Source of the DNA: Flavobacteriaceae bacterium
GTDB lineage: Bacteria; Bacteroidota; Bacteroidia; Flavobacteriales; Flavobacteriaceae
Assembly (NCBI GenBank): GCA_965178635.1
Contig: CBCXVT010000020.1
Location: 2,991 to 66,990 of the forward strand
Direction: 5' to 3'
DNA length: 64,000 bases
The notes under the pieces were generated by a model. That model was given only the letters and a program-made list of their open reading frames with translations, had not been told where the DNA came from and searched no databases. Each line of letters opens with the position of its first letter. The first letter of the stretch is position 1. A program made the position numbers and the translations under genes. Positions 6,019-54,155 of this stretch are shown piece by piece.

Positions 6019-7016
6019 AAAAGCTAACAAAAGGAGTGTCTATAATACTGTGCACCTATAATGGTAAAGAAAGGTTGTTAAAAACCTTTATGCACTTGGC
6101 TAAGCAAATTGTAACAATCCCTTGTGAAATTATTTTTGTTGATAATGCCTCAACAGATGGTACTAAAGGTTTTGCAGATACTTGGTGGTATGAGAACAGA
6201 CCCCTAAATATAACATACCGTTCGTTTAGTCAACCAATACTTGGTAAATCTTATGCTCAAGATATGGGGTATGAAAAAGCAATGCATCAATATTTGTTGG
6301 TGTGTGATGATGATAATTGGTTATGTGATACTTATGTACAAACAGCGTTTGATATTATGATTAACACCCCTGAAATAGGTGCTCTTGGAGGTTGGTGTGA
6401 TGCTGAGTTTGAGGATACTAAGCCACATTGGTTTGATATGTATAGTAATTATTTTGCTGTAGCTAAACAGGGGGTGGTTAGTGGCGATATAACTAACAGA
6501 AAAGGGTGTTTGTATGGGGCTGGGATGGTTTTAAATAAGGCGCATTGGTTGCAGTTAAAAAGGATAGGTTTTGAACATTTATTATCTTGTAGAAAAGGAA
6601 ATGCTTTAAGTTCTGGAGGTGATACAGAATATTGTTATGCATTGCGCTTATTGGGATATAAAATATGGTATGATGAACGGTTGTATTTTAAGCATTATAT
6701 GACTAAAGGGCGGATGCACTTAGCATATCTTAGTAGATTACGTAAAGCCATGTCTTCATCAAATTTTGTTTTATGGAGCTACATAGATTTGATAAAAGGA
6801 ACAAATAGAGGAGTGAAGGACATTTTAAAAAAAGGAAAGAAAGCTCTGATAAAGGAATGGTATGCTAAAATAAATGATTTTGTATTAGGTGATTATGAGC
6901 AAAAAGAAGAAGCGAAATATTATTTTAGGAATCTATATTATTTAGTGTTTTTAAAAAAAACCTATTTGAAGAATCAGTCATTTATTGAAAATTGGCTTAA
7001 AAATAATGATGTATGA
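6015..7016 (+). CDS. Family 2 glycosyltransferase
   Basis: VSIILCTYNGKERL...FVDNASTDGT and a CDDDNW (DxD) motif. Confidence 0.75.
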   Translation: MKKLTKGVSIILCTYNGKERLLKTFMHLAKQIVTIPCEIIFVDNASTDGTKGFADTWWYENRPLNITYRSFSQPILGKSYAQDMGYEKAMHQYLLVCDDDNWLCDTYVQTAFDIMINTPEIGALGGWCDAEFEDTKPHWFDMYSNYFAVAKQGVVSGDITNRKGCLYGAGMVLNKAHWLQLKRIGFEHLLSCRKGNALSSGGDTEYCYALRLLGYKIWYDERLYFKHYMTKGRMHLAYLSRLRKAMSSSNFVLWSYIDLIKGTNRGVKDILKKGKKALIKEWYAKINDFVLGDYEQKEEAKYYFRNLYYLVFLKKTYLKNQSFIENWLKNNDV

Positions 7017-8239
7017 AAACTGTTTGTTTTGTAGTACGTTCATTTCCTGTAGTGTCTCAAACGTTTGTTGTTAATCAAATTATAGCAGCAAAAAAACAAG
7101 GCTTTAAAGTAAAAATTTTAACTAAAAATCTTAATGACAATAGTAATTCTTCGCAAGAAAAACTAATAATTCAGCATGATTTACGAGCTGATGTTCTCAT
7201 AGAAAATTACGCTATTCCAAGAAGTAAAATTACGCGTTTTACACTCGCGTTATGGTTGATAATAAGCAATTTTAATAGTTGGCTAATCTTAAAGAAAGAT
7301 TTAGATAATTATAAAGATAGACTTTTAAAATTACCTTTTAAAATTGCCTTTTATAAAGCCTTAAAAAAAATAGATGTATTTCATATTCAGTTTGCTGTAG
7401 CGGGGTTAGATTTAGCAAAAATGAAAGCTTTAGGTTTGTTGCATGGAAAATTGGTGACGACATTCCATGGTTATGATGCGCATTATAGTACGGAAGGTGA
7501 ATTATCAAATCTAAAAAAGCGCTACGCATATTTGATCGCACAATCAGAAACTATAACAGTTAATACGCCTTTTTTAGAAAGACAAGTAGTGAAACTTGGT
7601 GCTGTAGTACATAAGATGCATATTATCCCCATGGGTATTGAGGTAGATTATTTTAAACCAGTTAAAAAGAATACATTGCCCAAAAATAAACAAGTTGAGT
7701 TATTGTCTATAGGGCGATTAATTGAATTTAAAGGGTTTTATTATGCAATACAAGCTGTTAAACATTTAGTAAATCAGGGGTATAATGTAAAATATACTAT
7801 AGTTGGAGAAGGACAATTACAAGAGGAGCTAGATAACTTAATAATTAGTTTGCAATTAGAAAATCATGTTGTTTTAGCTGGAAAAAAATCACAAACAGCA
7901 ATTAAAAAAATATTACATGAAAGTCATATTTTTTTAATGAGTTCTATTATCGACCGTACGGGTAGAGGGGAAACCCAAGGAGTAGTGACAGCAGAGGCGC
8001 AAGCAGCAGGCTTGCCTGTTGTAGCTTTTAATTGTGGGGGTATTCCATATACTATAGAACAAGGTGTTACAGGAATTTTAGTACCTGAAAAGCAAGCGTT
8101 TGAATATGCAGAGGCCATTACGTCAATAATAGATAGTCCTAAGAAACACGAAATGATGAGTCAGGCAGCAGTAGCGTTTGTAGCTGATAATTTTACAAAT
8201 GTACTTATGGGGAAACGTTTTGCAGAGTTGTATGATTAA
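7013..8239 (+). CDS. Family 4 (GT-B, GT1/RfaG-like) glycosyltransferase
   Basis: C-terminal ETQGVVTAEAQAAGLPVVAFNCGGIPYTIEQGVTGILV signature. Confidence 0.8.
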   Translation: MKTVCFVVRSFPVVSQTFVVNQIIAAKKQGFKVKILTKNLNDNSNSSQEKLIIQHDLRADVLIENYAIPRSKITRFTLALWLIISNFNSWLILKKDLDNYKDRLLKLPFKIAFYKALKKIDVFHIQFAVAGLDLAKMKALGLLHGKLVTTFHGYDAHYSTEGELSNLKKRYAYLIAQSETITVNTPFLERQVVKLGAVVHKMHIIPMGIEVDYFKPVKKNTLPKNKQVELLSIGRLIEFKGFYYAIQAVKHLVNQGYNVKYTIVGEGQLQEELDNLIISLQLENHVVLAGKKSQTAIKKILHESHIFLMSSIIDRTGRGETQGVVTAEAQAAGLPVVAFNCGGIPYTIEQGVTGILVPEKQAFEYAEAITSIIDSPKKHEMMSQAAVAFVADNFTNVLMGKRFAELYD

Positions 8240-8241
8240 AT

Positions 8242-8278
8242 AATTTCACTGAAAAACTCTTATTTTTCAGTGAAATTA
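8242..8278 (+). terminator. Hairpin terminator after PS locus 1
   Basis: Perfect 15-bp inverted repeat: aatttcactgaaaaa (8242-8256) pairs with tttttcagtgaaatt (8264-8278). Confidence 0.6.
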
Positions 8279-8513
8279 ATATAATACTCAAATACTATTA
8301 TCGTGAAACAATACAATAGTTTAAAACCGTACATTATAAGCTTAAAATAAAAGAATCCGTAACTAAAATGGATGCAGAACAACATGTTCAAGCAATTCTT
8401 GACTGTATTGTTGTGTAAGTTTGAAGCTTTTTAATAGGTGAATAAAATGATTGTAAAATCTAAACTATAAACACAGGCAAATACCTATATTAGCAGCTTA
8501 AAGTATTTAAAGT

Positions 8514-9339
8514 ATGATAATTAATGGAAGAAACGGTTTAACTGAACAATTATATACAGCAATTTTAGCCGCTCTAGAAGCAGGCGAAGCCATCATGAAC
8601 GTGTATGATAGCCCCGATTTTGGTGTTGAAATTAAAGACGATAAGTCGCCATTAACTCGTGCTGATAAGTATGCAAATGACATTATCAATACCTATTTAA
8701 TTCCTACTCAGATTCCGATAATTAGTGAAGAAAATAAACAAACAGACTACGCCACACGTAAAGAATGGCAACAGTGTTGGATTGTGGACCCTGTAGATGG
8801 AACAAAAGAATTCATTAAACGTAACGGAGAGTTTACGGTCAATATCGCTTTAGTTACCAATGGAGGTGCCTGAGTTAGGGGTGATTTATGTGCCGGTAAC
8901 AAAAACGGTATATGTCGCTGAAGTATCTACGCAAACGGGGTATAAAGCAACAGTTGAATCTCATCGTGCATCTATAGAAGATGTTATAGCAAAAGCAGAA
9001 CAATTACAACCTAAAAAAGTGTCAAATTCTGTTGAGGTAGTTGGGAGCAGATCACATATGAGTACCGAAACGGAACAGTATGTGGAAGCTTTAAAACAAG
9101 AAGGAAAAGAAGTGTCTATAGTGTCAAAAGGAAGTTCCTTAAAGTTTTGTTTGGTAGCTGAAGGAAACGCCGATGTCTATCCGCGCTTTGCACCTACAAT
9201 GGAGTGGGATACTGCTGCTGGACAAGCGATTTGTAATGCGGTTGGTGTTGCAGTCATTTCCGAAGCAACAAAAGCGCCATTACTATATAATAAAGAAAAT
9301 TTATTGAACCCTTGGTTCATCTGTAAATATGAAGGATAG
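8514..9339 (+). pseudogene. cysQ: 3'(2'),5'-bisphosphate nucleotidase CysQ, split by a frameshift near 8866
   Basis: WIVDPVDGTKEF and EWDTAAGQAI motifs. It is read as two overlapping ORFs (8514-8873 and 8860-9339) in different frames. Confidence 0.75.
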
Positions 9340-12461: not shown

Positions 12462-13310
12462 GTCATATCGACGTCAGGAGATATCTTATCGAGTTGATTT
12501 AAACAGGATTCTGGTGATTTCGACTTTAGGAGAAATCACATCTGAGTAAGTGTATTTGAGTGGTTTCTTGTGATATTCATTATGTGATTTCTCACTCCAC
12601 TTTGTTTCGTTTCGAAATGACACCGTGTATTATTTTGTGTATAACCATTTACGAATTTGTCAATTCGACGATAGGAGAAATCTCATCCAGTTCGATAAAG
12701 AGGTTCCTTGTCATTTCGACGTTAGGAGAAATCTCACAAGATGCTAAAGTTGCTATAACTATACAAAAGGATTAACTATTAACTATGTCAAACAGGTATT
12801 TTACTTATATCGTTACAAATAAATCCCGAACTACACTTTATATTGGAGTAACTAATAATATTCAAAGACGATTATCAGAGCATTATCCTGATAGTCAAAA
12901 CGCTAAAAGTTCTTTTGTAAGTAAATACAATTGTTATGACTTCCCGTATTACGAGACATTTGAATGTGTTAATACAGCCATTCTTAGAGAAAAAACACTT
13001 AAATACTGGAGCCGAGAAAAGAAAAATCAGCTAATTAGATTGTTCAATCCTAGCTGGGAGAGTTTGAATAACCAAATATTCTAACAGATATATTACTCAA
13101 CGTCATGTCGACGTCAGGAGAAACTTCATTCTTGTTGCTTTGTCCATTCGTCTTGTCATTTCGACTTTAGGAGAAATCTCATATTCTTGTTTTCATACAA
13201 CCTTGTCAGTTCGACTTCAGGAGAAATCTCATTCACTTTGTAACATTGTCATTGGTTCCATTGTCATTGGTTCCATTGTCATGTCGACGGTATGAGACAG
13301 CTCATTCACA
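12462..13310. repeat. Cluster of 9 copies of a ~30-nt hairpin-type element (consensus about GTCATTTCGACnTnAGGAGAAATCTCA)
   Basis: Copies start near 12462, 12514, 12584 (inverted, longer variant), 12658, 12708, 13101, 13153, 13203 and 13276. The arms are ATTTC and GAAAT. Confidence 0.8.
12785..13084 (+). CDS. GIY-YIG nuclease-family protein
   Basis: YFTYIVTN...LYIGVTNNIQRRLSEH matches the GIY-YIG N-terminal signature. 99 aa. Confidence 0.8.
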   Translation: MSNRYFTYIVTNKSRTTLYIGVTNNIQRRLSEHYPDSQNAKSSFVSKYNCYDFPYYETFECVNTAILREKTLKYWSREKKNQLIRLFNPSWESLNNQIF

Positions 13311-13825
13311 TGTTTATAGGGGGGGCTTGCCCCGTAAATGTTAATAGAAGTCCGCATCCATAAGCTTAACGTAATTTCGGTTATCATTCCAACAGTGGTA
13401 GTGTTTAGCGTATAGTCAGCCAATAGTACCGTACTCAAAGGGGCATTTGTATTGAAATCAAAGCCTTTTAATAGTGCTTTTCCTTCCAATGTTGCTAGTC
13501 CTATACTTACATTTCGTTGTCCCCTAACTGAGGTTTCATCGGTATTTTTAACCTTGCTTAATGTTTGCATTATTCTAGAGGACGTTCTGCCGTCTTTTGC
13601 GTCTGTAAGTAATGTCAACATCGCCTTTCGGAGCACTTTTCCCATTTTGGCACAATGCCCGAACTCTGCGCCATTCTCTCGAGTACGTGCATAGGCCGGA
13701 TCTGTTGCCATACGTTGTTTACTAACGCCGCCCTTAGTACGCACCAAGTAACCATCTTTTGTTTTATAGAAGGTCAACCCGTCTAAGGTACCTTCTAACT
13801 TAATTAGGCTTCTTAATTTTGCCAT
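13229..13825 (-). pseudogene. Uncharacterised MAK..GT.DG..FYK family protein, copy A, 3' part replaced by repeat sequence
   Basis: The first ~150 aa align with copies B and C. The remaining C-terminal third is a translation of the hairpin element and a 15-nt tandem repeat (MTMEP x2.6). Confidence 0.6.
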
Positions 13826-14085
13826 AATTTTTATGTGTTTTAATTAATATTGATGTGTTGTGTAGTTTTAAAAACACAATTAGAACTTCTGTATAGGCCT
13901 CTACAGAGCGTCTGATTTCAAATGTTTTTGCTGTCCTACAAGATAAAGCTAAGCACTTATAAGTTAGTGTGTTGTCAAAAGTGACCATCCTTGCCGATTT
14001 TGCCGAAAAGGGGAGTTTTTTCCGAATATGCCGTTTTTGTATATTGAAGAATCATGTAATTTACCTATTACAGAAGAGGATATCC

Positions 14086-14118
14086 CGTAGATGCGTCGTA
14101 GATACCCCGTAGTTAAAG
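14086..14118 (+). promoter_or_regulatory. Three tandem 11-bp direct repeats (iteron/operator-like), module A
   Basis: CGTAGATGCGT / CGTAGATACCC / CGTAGTTAAAG at 14086, 14097 and 14108. Confidence 0.6.
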
Positions 14119-14363
14119 TGTAAACACCATTCTAAATAATACAAACTGCGCACTAGTGAAATCAATAAATACGAATTCAAATACATGGTAATCAGTTAGT
14201 TAGTCTTGTTTTTTTAAATATTTTGATAAATGAGTGTTGAAAACTGCTGTTTGAAAACGTTACGTTTACCATTCTAAAAGTGTAATTTGTAATAGCTTGT
14301 AAGCATAAGATTTGAAATCTAAGGGCTATACTTTACAAGCAGATTGTCAATAGTAAACACACA

Positions 14364-14561
14364 ATGCATAGAATTTGTATACATACAAAAGAAGTACAAA
14401 TCATTACGGGTAAAAGTGAGCGAACAGCAAGGACTGTTATAAATGATATTAAAATTACTTATAACAAACAAAAGCATCAAGAAATCACTATTCGTGAGTT
14501 TTGTGACTATATGGATTTTCCATATGAAGAGGTGTATCAAATGATTAACCCTAAAAAATAA
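14364..14561 (+). CDS. Small (65 aa) HTH-like DNA-binding protein, module A
   Basis: Paralog of 24398-24604 and 49278-49485. Shared pattern: CI..K(D/E)(V/I)...TG(K/R).ER..R....IK....K..HQ...I.EF..Y. Confidence 0.55.
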   Translation: MHRICIHTKEVQIITGKSERTARTVINDIKITYNKQKHQEITIREFCDYMDFPYEEVYQMINPKK

Positions 14562-14754
14562 TAATAAACTCCTAAAACAAATGAACCAAATAGTTAAACA
14601 CTCTTTGAACGTCTCTAAAGCCTAGGGCAACGACATAAAATGCCGATGAAACGTATAAGTGTTTTTAGCAGTGATATTGTTAAGGGAATGCACTTAAAAA
14701 TAGCCCTTGGTTTACTATATTAGCCACTCAATTTTATAAAGCATTCCAATAGTA

Positions 14755-15687
14755 ATGACGCCATTAGTGTCCATAATCATACCAACGTACAATCGTGCGC
14801 ACCTAATATGTGAAACGCTAGATTCTATAATAGCACAAACCTATACCAATTGGGGGTGTATTGTGGTGGATGATGGCAGTATAGATGAGACTGCTATTGT
14901 AATGAATGCTTATATAAATAAGGACAGTAGGTTTCAACTTCATAAACGACCTACTCATAAACCAAAAGGAGCTAATGCGTGTAGAAATATAGGTTTAGAG
15001 TATGCTACAGGTGATTATGTTGTTTTCTTTGATAGTGATGATTTAATGTCTCCAAACCATTTAGAGGTTAAGGTGAGTGCTATGCAAATTCATAATTGTG
15101 ATTATGTGATTACAAAAACGAAGTTTATTGATGATGTGAAAAAGGTAGCGGGTAATAACTATAGGTTTAATACTTATCCTTTAACTGCATTTAATTATGT
15201 CTCACAAGCTTTAAACTGGCTTACTTACGATGTTTGTATAAAAGCGAAGTTAGCAAAATCTATTCAGTTTAACGAGTTGTTACAATCAGGGCAGGAGTAT
15301 AATTATTTTTCTAAATTAGTACATGTGTCGATAAACGCTCAATTTATTGATGAAATTGTTACATTAAGGCGGTATCATGAAACTTCAATACGAAGTAAAC
15401 TAGATACATCATATAAAAAACAAGAAAGTGCTTTTAGAGCCAAATGGTATACGTACTGTGACTTAATAACTATTGCAGATATAGAAACTAAGCGAAATCT
15501 ACTAGCAAAGTGTGTGACTATAGTTTATGATAGTAAACAAATATTAACACCTGATAAAATAAGGTTTTTAAAAGCAATATTTAAGGAATACAAATGGAAA
15601 GGAAGTTATTTTTTGTTAATGTTGTTAAACAGAAAACTGTTTAATAGAGGGTATATTTTTTTTAAAAAATTAACAGTACAAAATTAA
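14755..15687 (+). CDS. Family 2 glycosyltransferase
   Basis: VSIIIPTYNRAHLI...VVDDGSIDET and FDSDD (DxD) motifs. Confidence 0.8.
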   Translation: MTPLVSIIIPTYNRAHLICETLDSIIAQTYTNWGCIVVDDGSIDETAIVMNAYINKDSRFQLHKRPTHKPKGANACRNIGLEYATGDYVVFFDSDDLMSPNHLEVKVSAMQIHNCDYVITKTKFIDDVKKVAGNNYRFNTYPLTAFNYVSQALNWLTYDVCIKAKLAKSIQFNELLQSGQEYNYFSKLVHVSINAQFIDEIVTLRRYHETSIRSKLDTSYKKQESAFRAKWYTYCDLITIADIETKRNLLAKCVTIVYDSKQILTPDKIRFLKAIFKEYKWKGSYFLLMLLNRKLFNRGYIFFKKLTVQN

Positions 15688-15742
15688 TATGTTTAAAATA
15701 ACACATGCTTTTTAACGTTGAAAGGGATATGAGTTTTAATAA

Positions 15743-16063
15743 TTTAAAAAATATAAAGCTATAAATCAGCCTTATAATGAAAAACAATTTGTTGAGTTAG
15801 AGGAGATCGTTTTTTATTTAAAAGAGAATAATATTAAACCTATTTATGTATTTGCTCCAATTATGAAAAAGGATTATAAATCATTTAGAAGAATAAACGA
15901 ATTTAAAAAACGTATGTTGAAACTTGGTATTTATTATGATTGTAATGAATTATTAAATTTAAATGACACCTTACATTTTTTTGATTCACATCATTTAAAT
16001 CAAGATGGAGTAGAAATATTTAATACAGAATTAATTAAAGTGTTAGATTCAATTAATTATTAG
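15743..16063 (+). pseudogene. C-terminal remnant of an SGNH/DltD-like (DxxH) protein
   Basis: The frame is open from 15743 with no upstream start. Ends in ..FFDSHHLNQDGVEIF.., which resembles an SGNH-type catalytic DxxH block. The N-terminal part is absent. Confidence 0.35.
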
Positions 16064-16073
16064 TTTTAATGAA

Positions 16074-17015
16074 ATGTCAGACAAGCCACTTATCTCTATA
16101 ATCATCCCAACATATAACCGCGCGCATCTTATTGGTGAAACGTTGGATTCAGTTTTAGCACAAACTTATAGTAATTGGGAGTGTATTGTAGTTGATGATG
16201 GGAGTACTGATGATACTGCTGTAGTTGTTAATAGATATAAGGTTAATGATACCCGTTTTAAGTTTTATAACCGGCCTGATAACCGCCCCTCAGGTGGTAA
16301 TGCAGCACGAAATTTTGGCTTTGAAAAAGCCAAAGGTATTTATGTACAGTGGTTTGATAGTGATGATATTATGTGTCCAGATTATTTAAGTGCTCGATTA
16401 ACTGTATTTCAAGAACATCCAAAAAGCGATGTTGTATTTTGTGCGTTTACTTATTTTGATGATAGGGGTATGCAAAATAGAGTAACAAATGGCAATTTTA
16501 GTGGTGCTATTTTAGATGATTTAATTGAGAAAAAAATCTCATTTAGTCCACTGTCTTATTTATTAAGAAAAGATATATTATTAAGCCTAAATTTTGATGA
16601 ACACTTAAAGCGGGCACAAGATTTAGATTTCTTTTTTAAAGTTTTTACAAGTTCTAATTCTATAACGATTAAGCATGTGAAAAAAACGTTATTTAAAGTT
16701 AGAAAGCATAATAACGCTATAAGTTCTAAACCCGAAAAATCAGGGGCTAAATTAAATTCTAGATTTATAGTAAATACACGTATATTAAGTTATTTTTATA
16801 GCACCAAGAATACCAGAGCTATTACTTTGTGTAAGCAACAATGCTTACTTGATTTAAAACGTTTGCTAAACAACCATAATTTTAGCTTAGTTGTACATAA
16901 TATTATAACATTTAAATATTTTACTGTAAAACAAAAGTTATATTTATTGTTTTGTGGGGGTAGTCAATTTATTTTTAAACGTGGTGCTCACCAATTTTCT
17001 AAACTAAAAGTTTAA
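16074..17015 (+). CDS. Family 2 glycosyltransferase (paralog of 14755-15687)
   Basis: ISIIIPTYNRAHLIGETLDSVLAQTYSNWECIVVDDGSTDDT is nearly identical in pattern to the N-terminus of 14755. Confidence 0.8.
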   Translation: MSDKPLISIIIPTYNRAHLIGETLDSVLAQTYSNWECIVVDDGSTDDTAVVVNRYKVNDTRFKFYNRPDNRPSGGNAARNFGFEKAKGIYVQWFDSDDIMCPDYLSARLTVFQEHPKSDVVFCAFTYFDDRGMQNRVTNGNFSGAILDDLIEKKISFSPLSYLLRKDILLSLNFDEHLKRAQDLDFFFKVFTSSNSITIKHVKKTLFKVRKHNNAISSKPEKSGAKLNSRFIVNTRILSYFYSTKNTRAITLCKQQCLLDLKRLLNNHNFSLVVHNIITFKYFTVKQKLYLLFCGGSQFIFKRGAHQFSKLKV

Positions 17016-17016
17016 T

Positions 17017-17364
17017 ATGAAAACAGCATTTTCTGCATTTGTTTTTGGTGACTATGAGAAGTTTATTCCTTTCTATGTTTATTCTATTCATAAAAATTAC
17101 CCGGATAGTGATATAATTATTTTTTATCATTCAAATTTATCTTCACATTTAAAAGAGAGTTTGAAGGGTTATAACCAGTTAACTATTTATGAAAATTTTT
17201 ATCAAGAATATAAATCGTTCAAAAACCTAAAATTAAGTTTTAAAGAGAAATTTTATTATGGATTGTTAATTTTATTAAGTGTTTATTATAAAAATAATAA
17301 GGGGTATTATACTTTGAGAAAACCAATTTCTAATTATTTTCAAAACTTATTACAATCTAAATAA
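17017..17364 (+). CDS. Hypothetical 115-aa protein (possibly a truncated transferase)
   Basis: ORF only. It is tightly packed between GT genes. Confidence 0.25.
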   Translation: MKTAFSAFVFGDYEKFIPFYVYSIHKNYPDSDIIIFYHSNLSSHLKESLKGYNQLTIYENFYQEYKSFKNLKLSFKEKFYYGLLILLSVYYKNNKGYYTLRKPISNYFQNLLQSK

Positions 17365-17368
17365 ATTT

Positions 17369-18487
17369 ATGAGCTTAAGTAATACAATTAGAGTAGTACA
17401 GTTATTTGAAAGCTATCCGCTTTTTTACCAACCTTATATTCCGCCAGTTATAGCGGCCTTAGGTCAAGAACAAAGTCTAGAGCTTCGCATTAATGCTTTT
17501 AAAGGGACAGCAGATAATGGTGTTGAAATTTTACCGTCGTATTATAAACGAAAACTAAAAGAGAAGTTTTATGCGTTGAGGCATAACACTAAACTCAATT
17601 ACGCCGAAATACAATATATAAAACAAGGAGTCGATGTTGTGCATTTGCAACACTCATTTTTGTTTTCAAAAGTGAAAGGCTTATTGGCATTGCCAAATAA
17701 TGAACGACCAAAAATAATAATAACCCTTCGAGGTGGCGATACCTATGTTAAGCCTTGGTTATCTGAAAAATGGCAGGATTTTTATGCCAATTATGGCAAT
17801 CTGGTTGATGGATTCATCACCATGAGCCAACATCAAAAACAATACCTGAATGAAAAATGGGGGATAAACCCCAATAAAATTCATGTCATTCCAATTTCAT
17901 GTGTCAACCCTCCTGAAATACAAGCTAAATACCCAAATTCCAATACAATTAAAATAGTATCAGCGTTTAGAATGTGTTGGGAAAAAAACATAAATGGAAA
18001 TCTAAAAGTAATCAAGTATCTAAAGGATAAAGGGATAAATGTACAGTACCATATCTATGGTAGTGGTCCCGATGCTGGGCAACTAATGTTTTTAATTGAT
18101 AAGTACAAGCTCCAAAATAACGTCACCTACCACGGTAAAGTTGAAAATACAAGATTAAAAAGTAAATTGCATAATTCTGACATCTATTTGCAATTAAGCC
18201 ATTCGGAGTCTTTAGGGATGAGCGTTATTGAAGCTCAAGCTTGTGGACTGCCAGCAATTGTATCAAATAGCGGAGGATTGCCTGAAGTGATTATAGATAA
18301 AGAAAGCGGCTATTGTGTAGGGACTCATGAAACAGAACGAGCTGCAGAATACATATATGAACTTTGGAAAAATAAAGAAACGTACAAAGTTTTTTCTGCT
18401 AAAGCCATTGAAAATAGCCAAGGCTTTTCTGTTGATGTTGAGGTAGATAAATTAACGGCACTTTATAAGAAAATCACACAATTGTAA
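17369..18487 (+). CDS. Family 4 glycosyltransferase
   Basis: SESLGMSVIEAQACGLPAIVSNSGGLPEVI signature. Confidence 0.8.
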   Translation: MSLSNTIRVVQLFESYPLFYQPYIPPVIAALGQEQSLELRINAFKGTADNGVEILPSYYKRKLKEKFYALRHNTKLNYAEIQYIKQGVDVVHLQHSFLFSKVKGLLALPNNERPKIIITLRGGDTYVKPWLSEKWQDFYANYGNLVDGFITMSQHQKQYLNEKWGINPNKIHVIPISCVNPPEIQAKYPNSNTIKIVSAFRMCWEKNINGNLKVIKYLKDKGINVQYHIYGSGPDAGQLMFLIDKYKLQNNVTYHGKVENTRLKSKLHNSDIYLQLSHSESLGMSVIEAQACGLPAIVSNSGGLPEVIIDKESGYCVGTHETERAAEYIYELWKNKETYKVFSAKAIENSQGFSVDVEVDKLTALYKKITQL

Positions 18488-19677
18488 TGATGCCAAAATC
18501 GTTAAAAATCATTATCTTCGACGGTAGTTTTAAAACCACACCGTTTATAAACCGCTTACTAGAGGGGCTAGTACATAACCAGCACAAAGTATATGTCTTA
18601 GGGTTTAATGAAGCGTTAACTACAAAAATTGCCCAAGTGAACTACGTGCCACTTGGGAGCAATCAAAACAAATGGCGTTTAATAGTAACAACGCTTAAAT
18701 TATATTGGACTAATAAAAATAAAGCCAGTGTATGTCAAGCATTAGGTAACCTAATAAAAGGAAAACGAACTGACATACAGAAACAAAATGTGCAGTTTGC
18801 TATAAATAAAATTAAACCAGATGTTATACACGCGCAATGGACATCTGTATTACCTTGGCTTGAAGAAATTTTAGAAGCTCAAAAGATACCGGTAATCTTA
18901 AGTCAAAGAGGCTACCATTCCAATATACGGCCATTTGTAAATCAAGATAATTTCAATTATTTAAAACATTGGTACCCCAAAATAGCAGGATTTCATTCAG
19001 TGTCCAAAGCCATATCAAAAAAAGGAGATGATATTTATAAGGCTACAGATAAAAAAAATCATGTGGTTTATACCGGAATTGATTTTGAGAAGTTACCTTT
19101 TAATAAGTCATTACCAACCACCAAAACATTAGAGGTCATTTCTGTAGGTCGCGCCCATTGGATTAAAGGCTATGATAATGCCTTACAATCTTGTCAACTA
19201 TTAAAAGAGCAGGACATAGACTTTAAGTACACCATTATTGGTGCAGCTGGAGATGAAGAGTTACAGTTTTTACGTCATGATTTGGGTTTAGAAAATCACG
19301 TGAATCTTATTGGGCGTTTACCTCAAGAAGATGTGTTTAAGCGCATGCAAAACGCCAATGTACTAGTAGTATCTAGTATAGCTGAAGGCGTACCTAATGT
19401 GGTAGTGGAAGCTATGGCCTTGGGTGTGCCGGTAATCAGCACGGCGTGTGGAGGTGTGGAAGAACTGATTGAAAATAATACCAACGGCTGGTTAGTACCA
19501 ACCAGAAACCCAAAAGCACTTGCTGAGGCACTTATAAAATTCAATCAATTACCAAAGTCTACTATAGAAAATATTAGAATTTCAGCACACAAAAAAGTAG
19601 AAGCACAACATTCAGAAACAAAAATGATAGCAGATATGGAAGCTCTATACAAAACTGTTATAAAAGCCAAAAGTTAG
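18487..19677 (+). CDS. Family 4 glycosyltransferase
   Basis: EGVPNVVVEAMALGVPVISTACGGVEELI signature. Confidence 0.8.
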   Translation: MMPKSLKIIIFDGSFKTTPFINRLLEGLVHNQHKVYVLGFNEALTTKIAQVNYVPLGSNQNKWRLIVTTLKLYWTNKNKASVCQALGNLIKGKRTDIQKQNVQFAINKIKPDVIHAQWTSVLPWLEEILEAQKIPVILSQRGYHSNIRPFVNQDNFNYLKHWYPKIAGFHSVSKAISKKGDDIYKATDKKNHVVYTGIDFEKLPFNKSLPTTKTLEVISVGRAHWIKGYDNALQSCQLLKEQDIDFKYTIIGAAGDEELQFLRHDLGLENHVNLIGRLPQEDVFKRMQNANVLVVSSIAEGVPNVVVEAMALGVPVISTACGGVEELIENNTNGWLVPTRNPKALAEALIKFNQLPKSTIENIRISAHKKVEAQHSETKMIADMEALYKTVIKAKS

Positions 19678-19762
19678 TTTATACCATCATTGCGAGTGTA
19701 GTGTAACGAAACGTTGCAATCTCTTTTTAATTATCAACACCTCTGGAACAACAATAACAACT

Positions 19763-22700
19763 GGCCTTCGCTATGATCTCGTAAAAAATGCGATGAAAAT
19801 GCCGTAAAAGATGATGCTGTCTGAGCGCAGTGAGTTCATCAGATTTAGGCGTCGAACAAAATTTTTAGAGACTATAGCGTCAGCCTAGCGTTTTTGGGTT
19901 CTTTTTTGGGCGATGCAAAAAAGAATAGAGCCTTAAAATAAAACGGGTAGTCTCTATAAAAAATCAGTAGTCAACCAGGTTTTGAAATTGTTTTTTAAGC
20001 AATAATAACTAAGAGTATCAAAATTAACTCTGCATTAAATTATCGGCCTTCGCTATGATCTCGTAAAAAATGCGATGAAAATGCCGTAAAAGATGATGCT
20101 GTCTGAGCGCAGCGAGTTCATCAGATTTAGGCGTCGAACAAAATTTTTAGAGACTATAGCGTCAGCCTAGCGTTTTTGGGTTCTTTTTTGGGCGATGCAA
20201 AAAAGAATAGAGCCTTAAAATAAAACGGGTAGTCTCTATAAAAAATAAGTAGTCAACCAGGTTTTGAAATTGTTTTTTAAGCAATAATAACTAAGAGTAT
20301 CAAAATTAACTCTGCATTAAATTATCGGCCTTCGCTATGATCTCGTAAAAAATGCGATGAAAATGCCGTAAAAGATGATGCTGTCTGAGCGCAGTGAGTT
20401 AATCAGATTTAGGCGTCGAACAAAATTTTTAGAGACTATAGCGTCAGCCTAGCGTTTTTTGGGTTCTTTTTTGGGCGATGCAAAAAAGAATAGAGCCTTA
20501 AAATAAAACGGGTAGTCTCTATAAAAAATCAGTAGTCAACCAGGTTTTGAAATTGTTTTTTATGCAATAATAACTAAGAGTATCAAAATTAACTCTGCAT
20601 TAAATTATCGGCCTTCGCTATGATCTCGTAAAAAAATGCGGTGAAAATGCCGTAAAAGATGATGCTGTCTGAGCGCAGCGAGTTCATCAGATTTAGGCAT
20701 CGAACAAAATTTTTAGAGACTATAGCGTCAGCCTAGCGTTTTTGGGTTCTTTTTTGGGCGATGCAAAAAAGAATAGAGCCTTAAAATAAAACGGGTAGTC
20801 TCTATAAAAAATCAGTAGTCAACCAGGTTTTGAAATTGTTTTTTAAGCAATAATAACTAAGAGTATCAAAATTAACTCTGCATTAAATTATCGGCCTTTC
20901 GCTATGATCTCGTAAAAAATGCTGTGAAAATGCCGTAAAAGATGATGCTGTCTGAGCACAGCGAGTTCATCAGATTTAGGCGTCGAACAAAATTTTTAGA
21001 GACTATAGCGTCAGCCTAGCGTTTTTGGGTTCTTTTTTGGGCGATGCAAAAAAGAATAGAGCCTTAAAATAAAACGGGTAGTCTCTATAAAAAATCAGTA
21101 GTCAACCAGGTTTTGAAATTGTTTTTTAAGTAATAATAACTAAGAGTATCAAAATTAACTCTGCATTAAATTATCGGCTTTCGCTATGATCTCGTAAAAA
21201 ATGCGATGAAAATGCCGTAAAAGATGATGCTGTCTGAGCGCAGTGAGTTAATCAGATTTAGGCGTCGAACAAAATTTTTAGAGACTATAGCGTCAGCCTA
21301 GCGTTTTTTGGGTTCTTTTTTGGGCGATGCAAAAAAGAATAGAGCCTTAAAATAAAACGGGTAGTCTCTATAAAAAATCAGTAGTCAACCAGGTTTTGAA
21401 ATTGTTTTTTATGCAATAATAACTAAGAGTATCAAAATTAACTCTGCATTAAATTATCGGCCTTCGCTATGATCTCGTAAAAAAATGCGGTGAAAATGCC
21501 GTAAAAGATGATGCTGTCTGAGCGCAGCGAGTTCATCAGATTTAGGCATCGAACAAAATTTTTAGAGACTATAGCGTCAGCCTAGCGTTTTTTGGGTTCT
21601 TTTTTGGGCGATGCAAAAAAGAATAGAGCCTTAAAATAAAACGGGTAGTCTCTATAAAAAATCAGTAGTCAACCAGGTTTTGAAATTGTTTTTTATGCAA
21701 TAATAACTAAGAGTATCAAAATTAACTCTGCATTAAATTATCGGCCTTTCGCTATGATCTCGTAAAAAATGCAGTGAAAATGCCGTAAAAGATGATGCTG
21801 TCTGAGCACAGCGAGTTCATCAGATTTAGGCGTCGAACAAAATTTTTAGAGACTATAGCGTCAGCCTAGCGTTTTTTGGGTTTTTTTTGGGGCGATGCAA
21901 AAAAGAATAGAGCCTTAAAATAAAACGGGTAGTCTCTATAAAAAATCAGTAGTCAACCAGGTTTTGAAATTGTTTTTTATGCAATAATAACTAAGAGTAT
22001 CAAAATTAACTCTGCATTAAATTATCGGCCTTTCGCTATGATCTCGTAAAAAATGCAGTGAAAATGCCGTAAAAGATGATGCTGTCTGAGCACAGCGAGT
22101 TCATCAGATTTAGGCGTCGAACAAAATTTTTAGAGACTATAGCGTCAGCCTAGCGTTTTTTGGGTTTTTTTTGGGGCGATGCAAAAAAGAATAGAGCCTT
22201 AAAATAAAACGGGTAGTCTCTATAAAAAATCAGTAGTCAACCAGGTTTTGAAATTGTTTTTTAAGCAATAATAACTAAGAGTATCAAAATTAACTCTACA
22301 TTAAATTATCGGCCTTCGCTATGATCTCGTAAAAAATGCGGTGAAAATGCCGTAAAAGATGATGCTGTCTGAGCGCAGCGAGTTCATCAGATTTAGGCAT
22401 CGAACAAAATTTTTAGAGACTATAGCGTCAGCCTAGCGTTTTTTGGGTTCTTTTTTGGGCGATGCAAAAAAGAATAGAGCCTTAAAATAAAACGGGTAGT
22501 CTCTATAAAAAATCAGTAGTCAACCAGGTTTTGAAATTGTTTTTTAAGCAATAATAACTAAGAGTATCAAAATTAACTCTGCATTAAATTATCGGCCTTC
22601 GCTATGATCTCGTAAAAAATGCGGTGAAAATGCCGTAAAAGATGATGCTGTCTGAGCGCAGCGAGTTCATCAGATTTAGGCATCGAACAAAATTTTTAGA

Positions 22701-22844
22701 GACTATAGCGTCAGCCTAGCGTTTTTTGGGTTCTTTTTTGGGCGATGCAAAAAAGAATAGAGCCTTAAAATAAAACGGGTAGTCTCTATAAAAAATCAGT
22801 AGTCAACCAGGTTTTGAAATTGTTTTTTAAGCAATAATAACTAA
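19763..22844. repeat. Non-coding tandem array, ~10.9 copies of a 282-284-bp unit
   Basis: Unit starts (ggcc(t)ttcgctatgatctcg) at 19763, 20045, 20327, 20610, 20893, 21176, 21459, 21743, 22027, 22311 and 22594. No ORF of 60 aa or more on either strand. Confidence 0.95.
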
Positions 22845-22908
22845 CGGAGTACGGCAATCTCATCAAATTAAATGCTTGTATAATGCGTACTGTCTTCTCA
22901 ATGGTATC

Positions 22909-22940
22909 AAAAAAAAGGGGATGCCCAATGCCATCCCCTT
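22909..22940 (-). terminator. Rho-independent terminator of MAK copy B
   Basis: Stem ggggatg/catcccc (22917-22923 / 22932-22938), followed on the minus strand by a T8 run. Confidence 0.7.
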
Positions 22941-22963
22941 TAAATTAATAAGCCTCAAAAACC

Positions 22964-23713
22964 TTACAAAACATCTAAAATCTGTAAAGCATTATATGCC
23001 CCATTACGTAACGGATACTGCACCCCATTAACCTCTTGAAAAAATGCAATTTTCAATAAGTAAATAGATGTACCAGTTCCAGTCGGTACCCCCAAGGGAG
23101 TTAAAGTTACAGGAGTAAGTACAGAATTGATAGCAGTATTAAAAACAGCACTCAATTGCAAATCTTTAAGTGCTGTACTAAAATCCAAATTCAAAAACCC
23201 GCAACTCAAGCTCACGTGTGTAGCACCTTCTGGTAAACCTAAATTCTGAAGGGGGATAAAATCACTGATCACCACCTCACCAGTAGCTGTATTCAAACTG
23301 TAGTCTGATAAAAGCACACTGCTTAACGGTGCTTGGGCATTAAAATCAAAACCTGATAAAGCCTCTTGCCCTGTAGCTGTTGAAAGCCCAGCCGATACCT
23401 GACGTTGTCCGCGTATAGACGTGAGATCAGCATTTTTAACACGACTCATCACTTGTGTCAATCGTGGTGTAACACTGGAATCTTTAGCATCTGTCAGTAG
23501 GGGCAAAATTGCTTGTCGCAACAGTTTGCCGCTAGTGGCACAATGCCCAAATTCCGTCCCGTTTTCTCGGGTGCGAATAAACGCAGGATCATTTTTAATT
23601 CGTTGAGCACTAACACCACCTTTGGTGCGTACCAAATACCCCTCTTTGCCCTTGTAAAAGGTAAGACCGTCCAGGGTGCCTTCAATCTTAATAAAGCTGT
23701 TTAATTTAGCCAT
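22964..23713 (-). CDS. Uncharacterised MAK..GT.DG..FYK family protein, copy B (intact, 249 aa)
   Basis: Shares MAK-IK-GT-FYK-KGGV-DPAF-RTRENG-EFG N-terminal blocks and a C-terminal FFQEVNG..Y.L.NG.YNAL block with copy C. Confidence 0.7.
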   Translation of the reverse strand: MAKLNSFIKIEGTLDGLTFYKGKEGYLVRTKGGVSAQRIKNDPAFIRTRENGTEFGHCATSGKLLRQAILPLLTDAKDSSVTPRLTQVMSRVKNADLTSIRGQRQVSAGLSTATGQEALSGFDFNAQAPLSSVLLSDYSLNTATGEVVISDFIPLQNLGLPEGATHVSLSCGFLNLDFSTALKDLQLSAVFNTAINSVLTPVTLTPLGVPTGTGTSIYLLKIAFFQEVNGVQYPLRNGAYNALQILDVL

Positions 23714-24129
23714 AATAGTATATGTTTTAGGAGTACAACAGAATTTTACAAAGTCTATATTGTAGAGCTATGCTAACACTCAATCTAATTAAGCAATTAG
23801 CTTAGGGATTTGAAATGAAATTCAGAAGCCTACTAAAAGTCTGTTGCACTCTTGGTTAATAAATATAAATCTGATAAAAACAGGACTCTAACTAATGTGT
23901 AGCGCGCACATGCATAGTACTCTACATGAATTAATGACACCAATATTAAAGAACTGTGATTCAGTCTTATAAACCTAAAACATATTGTGATACAAAGCAA
24001 GTACGCTATGTCGAGAAGTGCACATAAAGACCTATTTTATCGTATTTTTCCAGAATGTCCCAAAATTTCTGAAAATGACCAAAAGTGCCGTTTTTTGCTG
24101 ATAGAGTTTAATAAAACGGATGAAGATGA

Positions 24130-24173
24130 TGTATAGCTAATGTATGGATAGTGTATGCATACTGTATGAAAAA
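24130..24173 (+). promoter_or_regulatory. Four tandem 11-bp direct repeats, module B
   Basis: TGTATAGCTAA / TGTATGGATAG / TGTATGCATAC / TGTATGAAAAA at 24130, 24141, 24152 and 24163. Confidence 0.6.
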
Positions 24174-24397
24174 GACATATGTAGATGTTAGAGAATATAA
24201 AAAATACAAGAAAGAGGTATAGAACAGGCACGATTGTTGCTCCTGATAATTAAAGTCTAAAAAAGTAAACACATACCGTTTGAAGAGGAGTAATTTTGAG
24301 TATTGGAAGCAAGGCAATTGGATAAGGAAAAGAATATAGCTTTAACCAAACAGAACCTTGTAAAATCAATCCAAAATGTTAAAACCCAACAAACTCC

Positions 24398-24604
24398 ATG
24401 AAGAGACTTTGCATCTATGCCAAAGATGTACAGATGATCACCGGAAAAGGTGAACGTTTTGCACGCAAAATAATAAAACAAATTAAACAGAAACTAGGGA
24501 AGAAACCCCACCAGTTCGTATCGATAAAGGAGTTCTGCGATTATGTCGATTTGCAATACGAAGAAGTCTATTATACCATCAATAACAGAAAACCGCGATA
24601 TTAG
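24398..24604 (+). CDS. Small (68 aa) HTH-like DNA-binding protein, module B
   Basis: Paralog of 14364-14561. Lies directly upstream of, and co-oriented with, PS locus 3. Confidence 0.55.
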   Translation: MKRLCIYAKDVQMITGKGERFARKIIKQIKQKLGKKPHQFVSIKEFCDYVDLQYEEVYYTINNRKPRY

Positions 24605-24829
24605 ATGTAGTTAATAAAGTTGCTGTAAAGTTGTGCCAAGAAGTTGCATATGCTGTATTAAGAATATAAATCTTCAAAACTTCTCATTCTTTAGTGCGTA
24701 TCACTTGTACTAAAGAGATTATATCAGTATGTTTGTTTCAGTTCATAATATTTTTTTTTGAAGTACATAACCATAGCAATTGACGAGTAGTGACGCTGAA
24801 ATGCATATGTGTTAAACTGTCAACTCGTA

Positions 24830-26218
24830 ATGAAAACTATAAAAACCAATATAATCCCTGTTCAACCTACTTTTGCTAAAGTAAAAGCACCTCATGAATT
24901 AGATTATGAGGCAATTTGTATATTTGCTGCAACAGGGTTTTTTCTAGACCAAGACACCTATTGGAAAGATGAAAAAGTCTTACGTCCTGGCCATACCACC
25001 ACTATAGATGATGAGGGGTATATAATAAATAGTACGCCTTGGTTCAAATGGCACTACTCACCAAGAGACATTGATTTAAATCAAGCAGTGAACGAGTTTA
25101 CAAACTTATTTGAAACCATTGTTAAAGAACAAACACAAGGCAAGCAAGTCATTCTGCCGTTATCTGGTGGATTGGATAGCCGCTCACAAGCAGTGGCTTT
25201 AAAACAAGTCAAGGCTAAAGTAAATAGTTACAGTTATTCCTATCAAAATGGTTATGACGAAGCAGGGGTATCTCAAAAAATTGCTAAATGTTTAGAAATA
25301 CCATTTATAAAATATACAATCCCAAAAGGCTATCTATGGAGTAAAATTGAACAACTGGCTACAATCAATGGCTGTTATTCAGAGTTTACCCACCCTCGTC
25401 AAATGGCAGTAGCAGATGAACTTGGGCAACTTGGTGAGCTGTTTTCTTTAGGGCACTGGGGAGATGTGCTATTCGATGCTGATGAACTGCCTGATGAAGC
25501 TAATGAAAACAGTATAGCCTATCTTAAAAAGAAAATTATTAAAAAAGGAGGATTAGCCTTAGCGAACTCACTTTGGAATCAATGGCAGTTGGAAGGTGAT
25601 TTTGAAACCTATTTAGAAAAGAGACTACTAACACTCTGGCAAGCTATAGACATACAACAGAAGAGTGCTAAATTAAGAGCTTTTAAAAGTCTGTATTGGG
25701 CGCCTCGTTGGACCTCGGTTAATTTGGCTGTGTTTGAAAATGAACAACCTGTAACGTTACCTTATTACGACGATCGCATGTGTGAGTTCATTTGTACTGT
25801 GCCGGAAGCCCTGTTAGCCAACAGACAAATTCAAATAGAATACATCAAAAAGCGTAATCCTAAAATAGCTAAAATAGTATGGCAAGATAAACGCCCGTTT
25901 AATTTGTACAATTACTATTGGCATAAGTTTCCGTATAATTTCCCATATAGAGTAATTACAAAGTTGCAGCGTGTAATTAATGGAATGTTGAAAGCACCCC
26001 ATGTACAACGCAATTGGGAATTGCAATTTTTAGGACAAAATAATGATGACATGTTGAAGACGTACCTATACAATTCTAAACTCACAAGTTCAGTGTCTAA
26101 AGAGCTGATTAATCAATACTATAAAGCATTTAAAAACAAAGATCAAGTTGTTTTTTCACACCCTCTTAGTATATTATTAACTTTATCACTTTGGTATAAA
26201 AATAATGTAGATTTATGA
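24830..26218 (+). CDS. Asparagine synthase (AsnB C-terminal domain)-like ATP-pyrophosphatase / amidotransferase
   Basis: PP-loop LSGGLDSRS. The ATG at 24830 is preferred over the GTG at 24809 used in the track. Confidence 0.65.
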   Translation: MKTIKTNIIPVQPTFAKVKAPHELDYEAICIFAATGFFLDQDTYWKDEKVLRPGHTTTIDDEGYIINSTPWFKWHYSPRDIDLNQAVNEFTNLFETIVKEQTQGKQVILPLSGGLDSRSQAVALKQVKAKVNSYSYSYQNGYDEAGVSQKIAKCLEIPFIKYTIPKGYLWSKIEQLATINGCYSEFTHPRQMAVADELGQLGELFSLGHWGDVLFDADELPDEANENSIAYLKKKIIKKGGLALANSLWNQWQLEGDFETYLEKRLLTLWQAIDIQQKSAKLRAFKSLYWAPRWTSVNLAVFENEQPVTLPYYDDRMCEFICTVPEALLANRQIQIEYIKKRNPKIAKIVWQDKRPFNLYNYYWHKFPYNFPYRVITKLQRVINGMLKAPHVQRNWELQFLGQNNDDMLKTYLYNSKLTSSVSKELINQYYKAFKNKDQVVFSHPLSILLTLSLWYKNNVDL

Positions 26219-49277: not shown

Positions 49278-49485
49278 TTAAGAGACTACTTCAAGATACT
49301 TATCAATAACCTCCTCTTTAATGCCACTATATTCTGCAAATTCATCAGGAGTGATAAATTGATGTTGCTCTTTCCCAAAGTACGTTTTAATTTTCTTTAA
49401 AAGCATACGTCCATAACGTTCGCTACGTCCTGTTAGAAACATAATATCTTTTGGGAAAATACAATGTCTTTTTAACCTTATTCAT
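49278..49485 (-). pseudogene. Small HTH-like protein, module C; N-terminus shifted by one extra A in an A5 run (about 49463-49467)
   Basis: MNKVK in one frame and RHCIFPKDIMFLTGRSERYGRMLLKKIK...HQFITPDEFAEY in the next. An internal ATG at 49442 would give 54 aa. Confidence 0.5.
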
Positions 49486-49510
49486 ACACTATCTATACTT
49501 TATCTATACA
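49478..49510 (-). promoter_or_regulatory. Three tandem 11-bp direct repeats, module C
   Basis: On the minus strand: TGTATAGATAA / AGTATAGATAG / TGTATGAATAA. The last one contains the ATG of the HTH gene. Confidence 0.6.
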
Positions 49511-49637
49511 CTAATTAACCATCATGTGTTTGTGAAAAATCGGCAAAAACGGTAGAAAACGGAATGGATGACCAGTGCTTTTAGGATTACTTCTTAAAGA
49601 TACGGAGCTTTATTGAGAATCAAAAATCATTATAATT

Positions 49638-51008: not shown

Positions 51009-51017
51009 AATAGCTCT

Positions 51018-53446: not shown

Positions 53447-53543
53447 GTTACTTTTTTAACAATTATTTCATTTGTTTACTTTGATGAGATTATTACGACT
53501 TTTTATCAAAAGCCTCATAATGACATTTTGGACTTTTGGAGTC

Positions 53544-53864: not shown

Positions 53865-53912
53865 ACTTTACTTTTATTATCAATACTTATAAAATAGATT
53901 TTAGACAAATGC

Positions 53913-54152: not shown

Positions 54153-54155
54153 TAT

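Follow-up and report, generated by a model that had tools for sequence, protein, structure and literature searches.

A pair of genes, one coding for a protein of about 250 residues (here called BIG) and the other for a helix-turn-helix (HTH)-like protein of about 65 residues, occurs in three copies, A, B and C, in a 64,000-nucleotide stretch of DNA from a Flavobacteriaceae bacterium (GenBank assembly GCA_965178635.1, contig CBCXVT010000020.1, positions 2,991 to 66,990 of the forward strand; hereafter the window). The pair is common in Bacteroidota, where it resides in polysaccharide (PS) loci, on plasmids and in genomic islands, and it is a real and not an ordinary finding. We tentatively read it as a self-contained, horizontally mobile Bacteroidota regulatory module of two genes, in which the HTH protein would read an array of 11-bp repeats lying between them.

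Copy B had been called intact in a preliminary description of this DNA and indeed carries both genes at full length. Its elements, in window coordinates, are as follows.

22914-22941, minus strand: intrinsic terminator-like hairpin just past the BIG-B stop codon, with a 10-bp stem including five G-C pairs, followed by a T-run (TTTTTG)
22964-23713, minus strand: BIG-B, an intact family member of 249 residues with a basic N-terminal half and an acidic C-terminal half predicted to form a β-sandwich
24088-24097, plus strand: box CCGTTTTTTG in the spacer
24113-24119, plus strand: AAAACGG, the inverted partner of CCGTTTTTTG, in the spacer
24130-24173, plus strand: operator-like array of four tandem 11-mers, TGTATAGCTAA TGTATGGATAG TGTATGCATAC TGTATGAAAAA (core TGTATGGATAG), also reported as a period-11 array by Tandem Repeats Finder (TRF)
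24291-24298, plus strand: candidate -7 box TAATTTTG of the Bacteroidota type, a consensus match 107 nt 5' of the HTH-B ATG
24398-24604, plus strand: HTH-B, 68 residues, helix-turn-helix-like
24728-24735, plus strand: second candidate -7 box, TATGTTTG, by consensus, 81 nt 5' of the first PS gene
24809-26218, plus strand: first gene of PS locus 3, Asn-synthase-like, in the same orientation as HTH-B

Because the terminator-like hairpin directly follows its stop codon, BIG-B appears to be monocistronic. The spacer between BIG-B and HTH-B measures 684 bp; it had been described as free of open reading frames (ORFs) and contains only short ones, of up to 74 codons, none with a family match. All six genes of the three copies were reproduced in the ORF list, and their elements follow the same order in copies A, B and C. 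The architecture recurs as first described, with the corrections that BIG-A is a truncated remnant and that HTH-C lacks a canonical start codon. HTH-A and HTH-B are co-oriented with the first genes of PS loci 2 and 3, and the genes 3' of them were confirmed as PS genes (GT2/GT4, sulfotransferase, Asn-synthase-like, Wzy_C and Bac_transf). PS locus 3 may have a promoter of its own at the candidate -7 box at 24728.

BIG belongs to a very large family. Searches yielded 2,370 matches to copy B and 6,192 to copy C in a 90% cluster database and 4,075 clusters at 50% identity (E ≤ 1e-3), nearly all members being 248-252 residues long, and BIG is carried by at least 577 species genomes. All database names of BIG relatives read 'hypothetical'. 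A profile search with a 24-sequence alignment as query provided the genome loci; all 80 of those listed, and all plasmid matches, are from Bacteroidota (Flavobacteriia, Chitinophagia, Cytophagia), except for one metagenome bin labelled Balneola. Most copies are chromosomal. A contig of a Kordia metagenome-assembled genome is 98% identical to the window, which probably comes from a Kordia species. No match was found in 50,697 INPHARED phage genomes or in 2.9 million IMG/VR contigs, and an origin of the pair from phages, or as a phage remnant, was rejected on this ground. Domain fusions were likewise rejected, as the longer members are read-through or mis-started ORFs only.

Profile searches with BIG found no match in Pfam, NCBIfam, PHROGs, PADLOC or PDB sequences, also when 139 members were scanned singly; in Pfam, BIG-A, BIG-B and BIG-C had no family at E ≤ 1, and no family recurred among the 139 members. 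An AlphaFold (AF2) model based on 139 diverse sequences reached a predicted local distance difference test (pLDDT) score of 96.2 and a predicted template-modelling (pTM) score of 0.87, while an earlier run with a shallow alignment (pLDDT 60.6) was discarded. The model predicts a small N-terminal β-meander, a helical region at residues ~36-133 and a C-terminal β-sandwich at residues 139-248. Foldseek searches with this model against PDB and BFVD returned nothing at E ≤ 1e-3, with query-normalised TM-scores of at most 0.27 and only generic β-sandwich noise, so the predicted fold is apparently new. The N-terminal half is strongly basic and Arg-rich (median isoelectric point 10.3), with near-invariant arginines at positions 47, 49, 66, 84, 101 and 104, and the C-terminal half is acidic (4.6). 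Inspection of the sequence shows no signal peptide in BIG. The N- and C-terminal motifs that had been picked out from the window copies turned out to be real and family-wide. Conservation is much higher in BIG than in the HTH protein or the repeats, and within the family it is highest in the N-terminal domain.

For the HTH protein, scans of Pfam, NCBIfam, PHROGs and PADLOC, including single scans of 46 members, yielded sub-threshold similarities only, namely to HTH_17, excisionase and sigma-70 region 4. HTH_17 (PF12728) was matched by copy A at E=0.081 and by 4 of the 46 members (best E 0.003); these matches and those to TIGR01764 (E=0.14) and to PHROG excisionase/Cox families (E 0.02-0.15) all fell far below the family thresholds. 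A profile of the protein found nothing below E=0.2 among PDB sequences, and every database name is again 'hypothetical'. That the small protein is of the helix-turn-helix kind is inferred from its sequence pattern. Profile searches, and for BIG also structure searches, leave both proteins unannotated, in keeping with the first reading of the sequence, which had called the module uncharacterised.

The two genes usually occur together. We surveyed 87 loci from other genomes, 82 of which had enough upstream sequence to judge. A gene for an HTH-like protein of ~65 residues lies upstream of BIG in 76 of the 82 and is divergent from it in 74. The pair is thus co-conserved and almost always divergent, which supports its earlier reading as a divergent two-gene module. 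HTH and BIG share a strand in two loci only, both from Gelidibacter (L028, 5819-7750; L045, 2522-4187), where the HTH segment may have undergone an inversion that became fixed in the genus.

The DNA between the genes is periodic at 11 bp far beyond chance, the spacers typically holding 3-5 direct repeats at intervals of one helical turn. At this period, 54 of 77 homologous spacers scored at least 9, compared with 0-8 spacers for the other periods from 7 to 15 and 1.6% of shuffles; a score of at least 14 was reached by 36/77 spacers and by 0% of shuffles. The commonest core of the repeat unit is GTAT(G/A)GATA. GTATGG occurs in 40/73 homologous spacers versus 8/166 control intergenic regions of the same loci, the GTATGG/GTATAG core being enriched over control intergenic DNA with p of about 1e-15 to 1e-17. 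TCCGT/ACGGA words form a second enriched class (47/73 homologous spacers versus 39/166 control regions). The unit varies by locus, and some loci have quite different ones (TCTCGGGCGTA, AAGGGAAGATA, CATAGGAAAGC, ACATACCCCGT). Compact spacers of 150-250 bp, from both Flavobacteriales and Chitinophagales, show a perfect match to the Bacteroidota -7 box (TAnnTTTG) ahead of each gene, and the array starts ~22 nt downstream of the HTH -7 box, an operator-like position. In the long spacers of the PS-locus clade, the distance from the array is ~260 nt to BIG and ~225 nt to the HTH gene, and the orientation of the array differs between lineages; neither inverted repeats nor an inversion polymorphism that would account for this were found. 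HTH proteins with the helix motif R[YFS][AGS]R tend to be paired with arrays of the GTAT[AG] core (13/16 versus 8/30), and distinct helix variants go with units of their own, KRYAQ with AAGGGAAGATA and CYKTAC with CATAGGAAAG.

Forty-five of the 87 loci have at least two PS genes within 7-10 kb. They are essentially those of the clade closest to copy B (at least 57% identity), whose members sit inside PS loci of Winogradskyella, Bizionia, Mariniflexile, Hanstruepera, Mangrovimonas, Formosa, Lacinutrix, Yeosuana and others. The link to PS loci is thus not specific to this strain but spans many genera of Flavobacteriaceae. The typical gene order is glycosyltransferases-wzt-wzm-HTH, BIG, epimerase-ugd-(sugar transferase)-wzc-wza, so that the pair falls where the variable half of the locus meets the conserved one. 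In Flavobacteriaceae, then, one clade is a fixed resident of PS loci, lodged between conserved wza-wzc and the variable wzm/wzt-glycosyltransferase part, and in marine members of the family it lies exactly at this boundary. Taken together, we found neither a match to a characterised family, nor a lack of co-conservation, nor a PS pairing unique to one strain.

Other clades reside elsewhere, and for these the alternative first offered for the pair, that it is the conserved end of a family of integrative elements, holds: they occupy island edges and plasmids. Copy C exemplifies one such type.

49278-49475, minus strand: HTH-C; the ORF from the first ATG (49278-49442) has 54 codons, and the conserved frame runs to ~49475
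49478-49510, minus strand: copy C 11-mers
49535-49562, minus strand: three CCGWTTTT words
49638-50393, plus strand: BIG-C, 251 residues, gene 1 of a four-gene operon
50396-50818, plus strand: DUF5675 protein (Pfam E=7e-32), a putative C82/YkuD-like cell-wall peptidase, 3 nt past the BIG-C stop
50796-51203, plus strand: two small proteins of 70 and 61 residues, with two hydrophobic segments each, holin-like; kept after DUF5675 in other genomes

In HTH-C, conserved N-terminal codons (KRHCIFPKDI, 49443-49475) precede the first ATG, and the frame offers no ATG, GTG or TTG there; the gene may use a rare start codon or may be decaying. Matches of the two small proteins to PHROG holins were not significant (E 0.5-1). 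The operon of BIG, DUF5675 and the two putative membrane proteins, with its 3-nt gap and overlapping genes, is kept in Polaribacter, Tenacibaculum, Flavivirga and Marivirga, where YAcAr, DUF6943, RES, HTH_17 and RteC genes are neighbours. To the right of copy C in the window lie genes for an SRAP peptidase, a UmuD-like S24 peptidase, a C-terminal UmuC fragment and an McrBC component (52709-55607 and 62880-63974); this SRAP-umuD-umuC' cluster with McrBC is typical island cargo.

The copy-C type and a third type are found at island edges with sharp boundaries, where RteC/HTH_17/RES or heavy-metal genes adjoin them. At the heavy-metal island edges, the part shared by the third type is only ~2.1 kb long and comprises both genes of the pair plus ~825 bp without ORFs. 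The unit (loci L053-L063, at ~6474-8575 in, for example, L061) has a sharp left boundary at GCGGAGAAAGAGGTAAGTGAACCTCTTTCG and is 96-97% identical between Winogradskyella and Polaribacter, with the same unit in Lacinutrix by alignment, while the flanks are unrelated. Near-identity between genera in unrelated flanks indicates that the pair moves horizontally, as a unit or as the end of an island. The conserved ~825-bp tail carries a -7 box, TATATTTG, after the BIG terminator; no ORF was found in it, and Rfam gave a single sub-threshold small-RNA match (E=0.05). No tRNA was found consistently at the unit boundaries, and tRNA-linked integration was rejected. An integrase gene adjoins BIG at one plasmid locus only, and an integrase fragment lies near it in another; among the ORFs flanking the three window modules there was none (not every window ORF was scanned).

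In Fulvitalea axinellae, seven different co-resident plasmids carry one copy each. The pair lies within a few kb of rep on pFA7, pFA10 and pFA12 and adjoins parAB on pFA10 and pFA12. A separate replication initiation protein is annotated near BIG on pFA7, pFA9, pFA10 and pFA12, and most copies of the family are chromosomal; we therefore rejected a Rep/iteron origin. The term iteron, used in the preliminary description, implies replication, but the carrier plasmids have their own Rep. Each plasmid examined (loci L089-L093: pFA3, pFA7, pFA9, pFA10 and pFA12) bears one HTH-BIG pair. pFA7, pFA9, pFA10 and pFA12 also have a nearly identical 71-codon ORF (MEKEILEA...) between HTH and BIG, extended and frame-disrupted on pFA9, and on pFA3 an SRAP gene lies near the pair, as it does to the right of copy C.

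The remaining window copy lies in partly decayed surroundings.

13229-13825, minus strand: BIG-A remnant, an ORF of 198 codons with homology confined to residues 1-144 (13394-13825) and with loss of the C-terminal domain
13993-14039, plus strand: copy A GCCG words
14086-14118, plus strand: three 11-mers, CGTAGATGCGT CGTAGATACCC CGTAGTTAAAG
14364-14561, plus strand: HTH-A, 65 residues, in the same orientation as the GT2 gene at 14755

An intact relative matches residues 1-144 of BIG-A at 91% identity, and the homology goes no further than 13394. From 8514 to that point the DNA is decayed, with a cysQ-like inositol-monophosphatase gene split into two ORFs, fragments of a PAPS reductase (cysD-like) and of an EF-Tu-domain protein (cysN-like), and the truncated BIG-A; genes of sulfate activation for a sulfated polysaccharide thus appear to have become pseudogenes. 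A small GIY-YIG nuclease-like ORF at 12785-13084 directly adjoins the end at which BIG-A is cut short, where it may mark the deletion. Similar GIY-YIG nuclease-like ORFs (~65-100 codons) lie directly beside the module in L004, L010, L013, L016, L017, L030, L039, L047 and L068. Between the last PS locus 2 glycosyltransferase and the BIG-B terminator lie 10.9 tandem copies of a 283-bp unit (19763-22844, 98% matches); no ORF of at least 45 codons and no Rfam match was found there. Related contigs show only ~1-2 copies, a difference that may be genuine or due to assembly collapse. An Rfam scan of 13000-25000 found nothing.

Based on these observations, we tentatively propose that cooperative binding of the variable HTH protein to the 11-mer array specific to its locus controls the divergent promoters, with BIG as the conserved output. 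In compact versions, binding just downstream of the HTH -7 box would autoregulate the HTH gene. Binding would further set the balance between the BIG unit on the left and a rightward unit made up of the HTH gene and what follows it (PS genes here; elsewhere plasmid rep or an island edge), and locus-specific repeats would prevent cross-talk among paralogous modules in one cell, such as the three in the window. Because BIG is far more conserved than the repeats or the HTH protein, we assign the arrays to the HTH protein and to BIG a conserved target, which might be nucleic acid or the transcription machinery, contacted via the basic domain, or else the envelope, as in the copy-C operon. The PS-locus clade probably gates expression of the variable part of the locus. 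We grade this control of PS genes as no more than plausible, because the HTH gene is not always at the operon head and PS locus 3 has a candidate -7 box of its own.

Several observations weigh against this proposal. The HTH assignment rests solely on sub-threshold similarities, and about 7% of loci carry BIG without a detectable HTH gene. The association of the helix motif with array cores was defined post hoc and without correction for phylogeny, and covariation of the repeat unit was not significant in global partial Mantel tests (HTH p=0.17, BIG p=0.09). The Fulvitalea plasmid copies lack clear 11-mer arrays. The HTH gene, which had been placed at the head of the PS locus and does stand there in the window, is not consistently an operon head, as in many loci the next gene is convergent. 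With a separate candidate -7 box before the first PS gene, PS transcription may moreover be independent of the module.

The divergent layout, with three to four tandem sites between genes for ~250 and ~65 residues, would also suit a bistable switch arranged like P2 C/Cox or lambda cI/cro. BIG would then be a repressor whose basic N-terminal half binds DNA and whose acidic C-terminal half mediates oligomerisation, the HTH protein a Cro/Cox-like antagonist, and the repeats and CCG words shared operators, so that a PS locus, plasmid or island would be turned ON or OFF epigenetically and without inversion. The second word class, TCCGT, could be the BIG site, and the co-transcription of BIG with accessory membrane and cell-wall genes in the copy-C type resembles that of cI with rexAB. 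We nevertheless regard such a switch as unlikely. A most conserved N-terminal domain facing widely varying repeats is a misfit for a sequence-specific repressor, BIG has neither an HTH/XRE or S24 domain nor a fold match, and the pair was never found in phages. We rate it equally unlikely that BIG is an envelope effector or cargo, released in copy-C loci via the DUF5675 peptidase and the two holin-like proteins in a 'type 10 secretion'-like manner and acting on or with surface polysaccharide in PS loci, with the HTH protein merely its regulator. The tight operon conserved in several genera, the missing signal peptide, the relation of both PS loci and copy-C operon to the cell envelope, and a weak, non-significant resemblance of the modelled C-terminal domain to carbohydrate-binding or adhesin β-sandwiches are all consistent with it, as is DUF5675, which has been proposed, by structure, to be a C82-peptidase-like lysin domain (preprint 10.64898/2026.04.11.717860). 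However, most family members have no lysin and holin genes beside them, the holins are putative, plasmid backbones and island edges are not envelope-related settings, and the basic, Arg-rich and conserved N-terminal half suggests a nucleic-acid ligand.

The basic conserved domain would fit a factor for maintenance or 'stealth' of mobile DNA, as would the settings of the pair: beside rep/parAB on seven co-resident Fulvitalea plasmids with a single copy each, at island edges, and in PS cassettes that are exchanged horizontally. BIG might be carried by mobile elements as a nucleoid-associated or processivity-type factor that works on acquired DNA, in a role like that of plasmid H-NS-like or RfaH/UpxY/ActX-type proteins, or a stability function of plasmids and islands; its distribution over PS loci, plasmids and islands mirrors that of specialised NusG paralogues. 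Since BIG has no similarity at any threshold to NusG/KOW, H-NS, HU or ParA/ParB and no NTPase motifs, and a dedicated divergent regulator is atypical for nucleoid proteins, we consider this doubtful, somewhat more so than the switch. Still less likely is anti-phage defence, abortive infection or a toxin-antitoxin-like addiction pair accumulating in variable islands, PS loci included. The pair is patchy, multi-copy and mobile, lies in islands beside RES, Fic, McrBC, PIN-helicase and SLOG (YAcAr) genes, and in copy C includes lysis-like genes that could act as a suicide effector, but neither protein has a PADLOC match, the genes are divergent and not operonic, and BIG is 60-75% identical across genera and syntenic in PS loci, which is not the pattern of fast-evolving defence genes. 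We hardly expect the pair to be a module for site-specific recombination or inversion, or what is left of a prophage structural gene. Weak excisionase-like matches of the HTH protein, array orientations flipped between lineages, the two Gelidibacter loci and the integrase gene beside BIG on one plasmid would be in line with recombination, which had been considered at the outset; against it, BIG shows no recombinase fold or domain, the window modules no integrase partner, and no convincing inverted repeats, nor any flanking ones above chance, were found. Six near-identical contigs are all collinear, without inversion polymorphism; on this collinearity and the lack of convincing inverted repeats an invertible promoter was rejected. 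The prophage variant is contradicted by the absence of BIG from the phage genomes and IMG/VR contigs searched.

In Bacteroidota, sensitivity to phages, grazing and interaction with hosts are all controlled by variation of the surface polysaccharide. To our knowledge, the regulation of this variation is essentially uncharted outside Bacteroides, with its UpxY/UpxZ proteins and invertible promoters. The literature on DUF6943/YAcAr, integrative and conjugative elements of Flavobacteriaceae and 11-bp repeats held nothing describing the HTH-BIG pair. With one small protein, one DNA array and one 250-residue protein, the pair offers a testable handle on how acquired cassettes are controlled and exchanged. 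BIG, as a very large unnamed family with a confidently predicted fold lacking a structural relative, a conserved partner and a clear cis-element, merits definition in domain databases. It is conceivable, if improbable, that BIG founds a new fold class that binds nucleic acid or the transcription machinery and is carried by mobile elements and variable PS cassettes together with a private HTH/11-mer operator, so that these elements and cassettes could switch their own expression on or off without DNA inversion. It would then be a non-NusG counterpart of UpxY/RfaH or a regulator of xenogeneic DNA in what is, as far as we know, a phylum without H-NS-type silencers.

Among known systems, the immunity regions of P2 (C/Cox) and lambda (cI-rexAB/cro) come close in layout, with a larger and a small (~65-90 residues) regulator gene in divergent orientation and a short region of tandem sites between them. 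Cox-type proteins bind helically phased direct repeats, and in phage immunity regions accessory membrane genes can ride on the transcript of the larger gene. In contrast, the module bears no relationship to these regions in sequence, domain or fold, was never found in phages, and has PS, plasmid or island genes and not prophage genes as neighbours. Higher conservation of BIG than of the operators also sets it apart from an immunity repressor, and neither Pfam scans of 139 members nor Foldseek (E ≤ 1e-3) revealed an HTH_3/XRE or S24 domain as in lambda CI/XRE-S24 or P2 C repressors. The excisionases and MerR-like HTH_17 proteins, for which tandem phased sites are typical, resemble the small protein in size and by weak sub-threshold similarity, but the matches are far below thresholds and most loci have no adjacent integrase. 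In the copy-C type only, the combination of DUF5675 and two small proteins of two transmembrane segments in one operon with a signal-peptide-less protein is reminiscent of holin/endolysin (type 10 secretion-like) systems, from which it differs in not being in a phage, in its putative holins and in that most BIG genes lack the cassette.

Small DNA-binding proteins on plasmid repeats are known in ParR (R1 parC) and StbA (R388 stbDRs). The module is like these in having direct repeats of 11-bp period next to a gene for a small, DNA-binding-like protein, with some copies beside rep/par; it is unlike them in lacking a partner NTPase, as BIG has no ParM-, ParA- or StbB-like domain, in that carrier plasmids encode ordinary ParA/ParB, and in that the plasmid copies lack clear arrays. 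With Bacteroides UpxY/UpxZ it shares a pair of small to medium-sized genes at the edge of a variable PS locus, one copy per locus in a multi-locus genome. UpxY, however, is of the NusG/KOW family and is the first gene of its operon, whereas BIG is divergent with its own terminator and, like the HTH protein, matched no NusG (NGN)/KOW model in Pfam or NCBIfam (139 BIG members). The HTH gene is co-oriented with the PS operon here but not in many other loci, and the HTH-BIG pair is also found on plasmids and islands without PS genes. The functional likeness to UpxY/UpxZ raised at the outset stays an analogy. As proposed here, the module functions as other divergent regulator-operator modules on mobile DNA do, but its two protein families are both unannotated, and the fold of one has no detectable relative.

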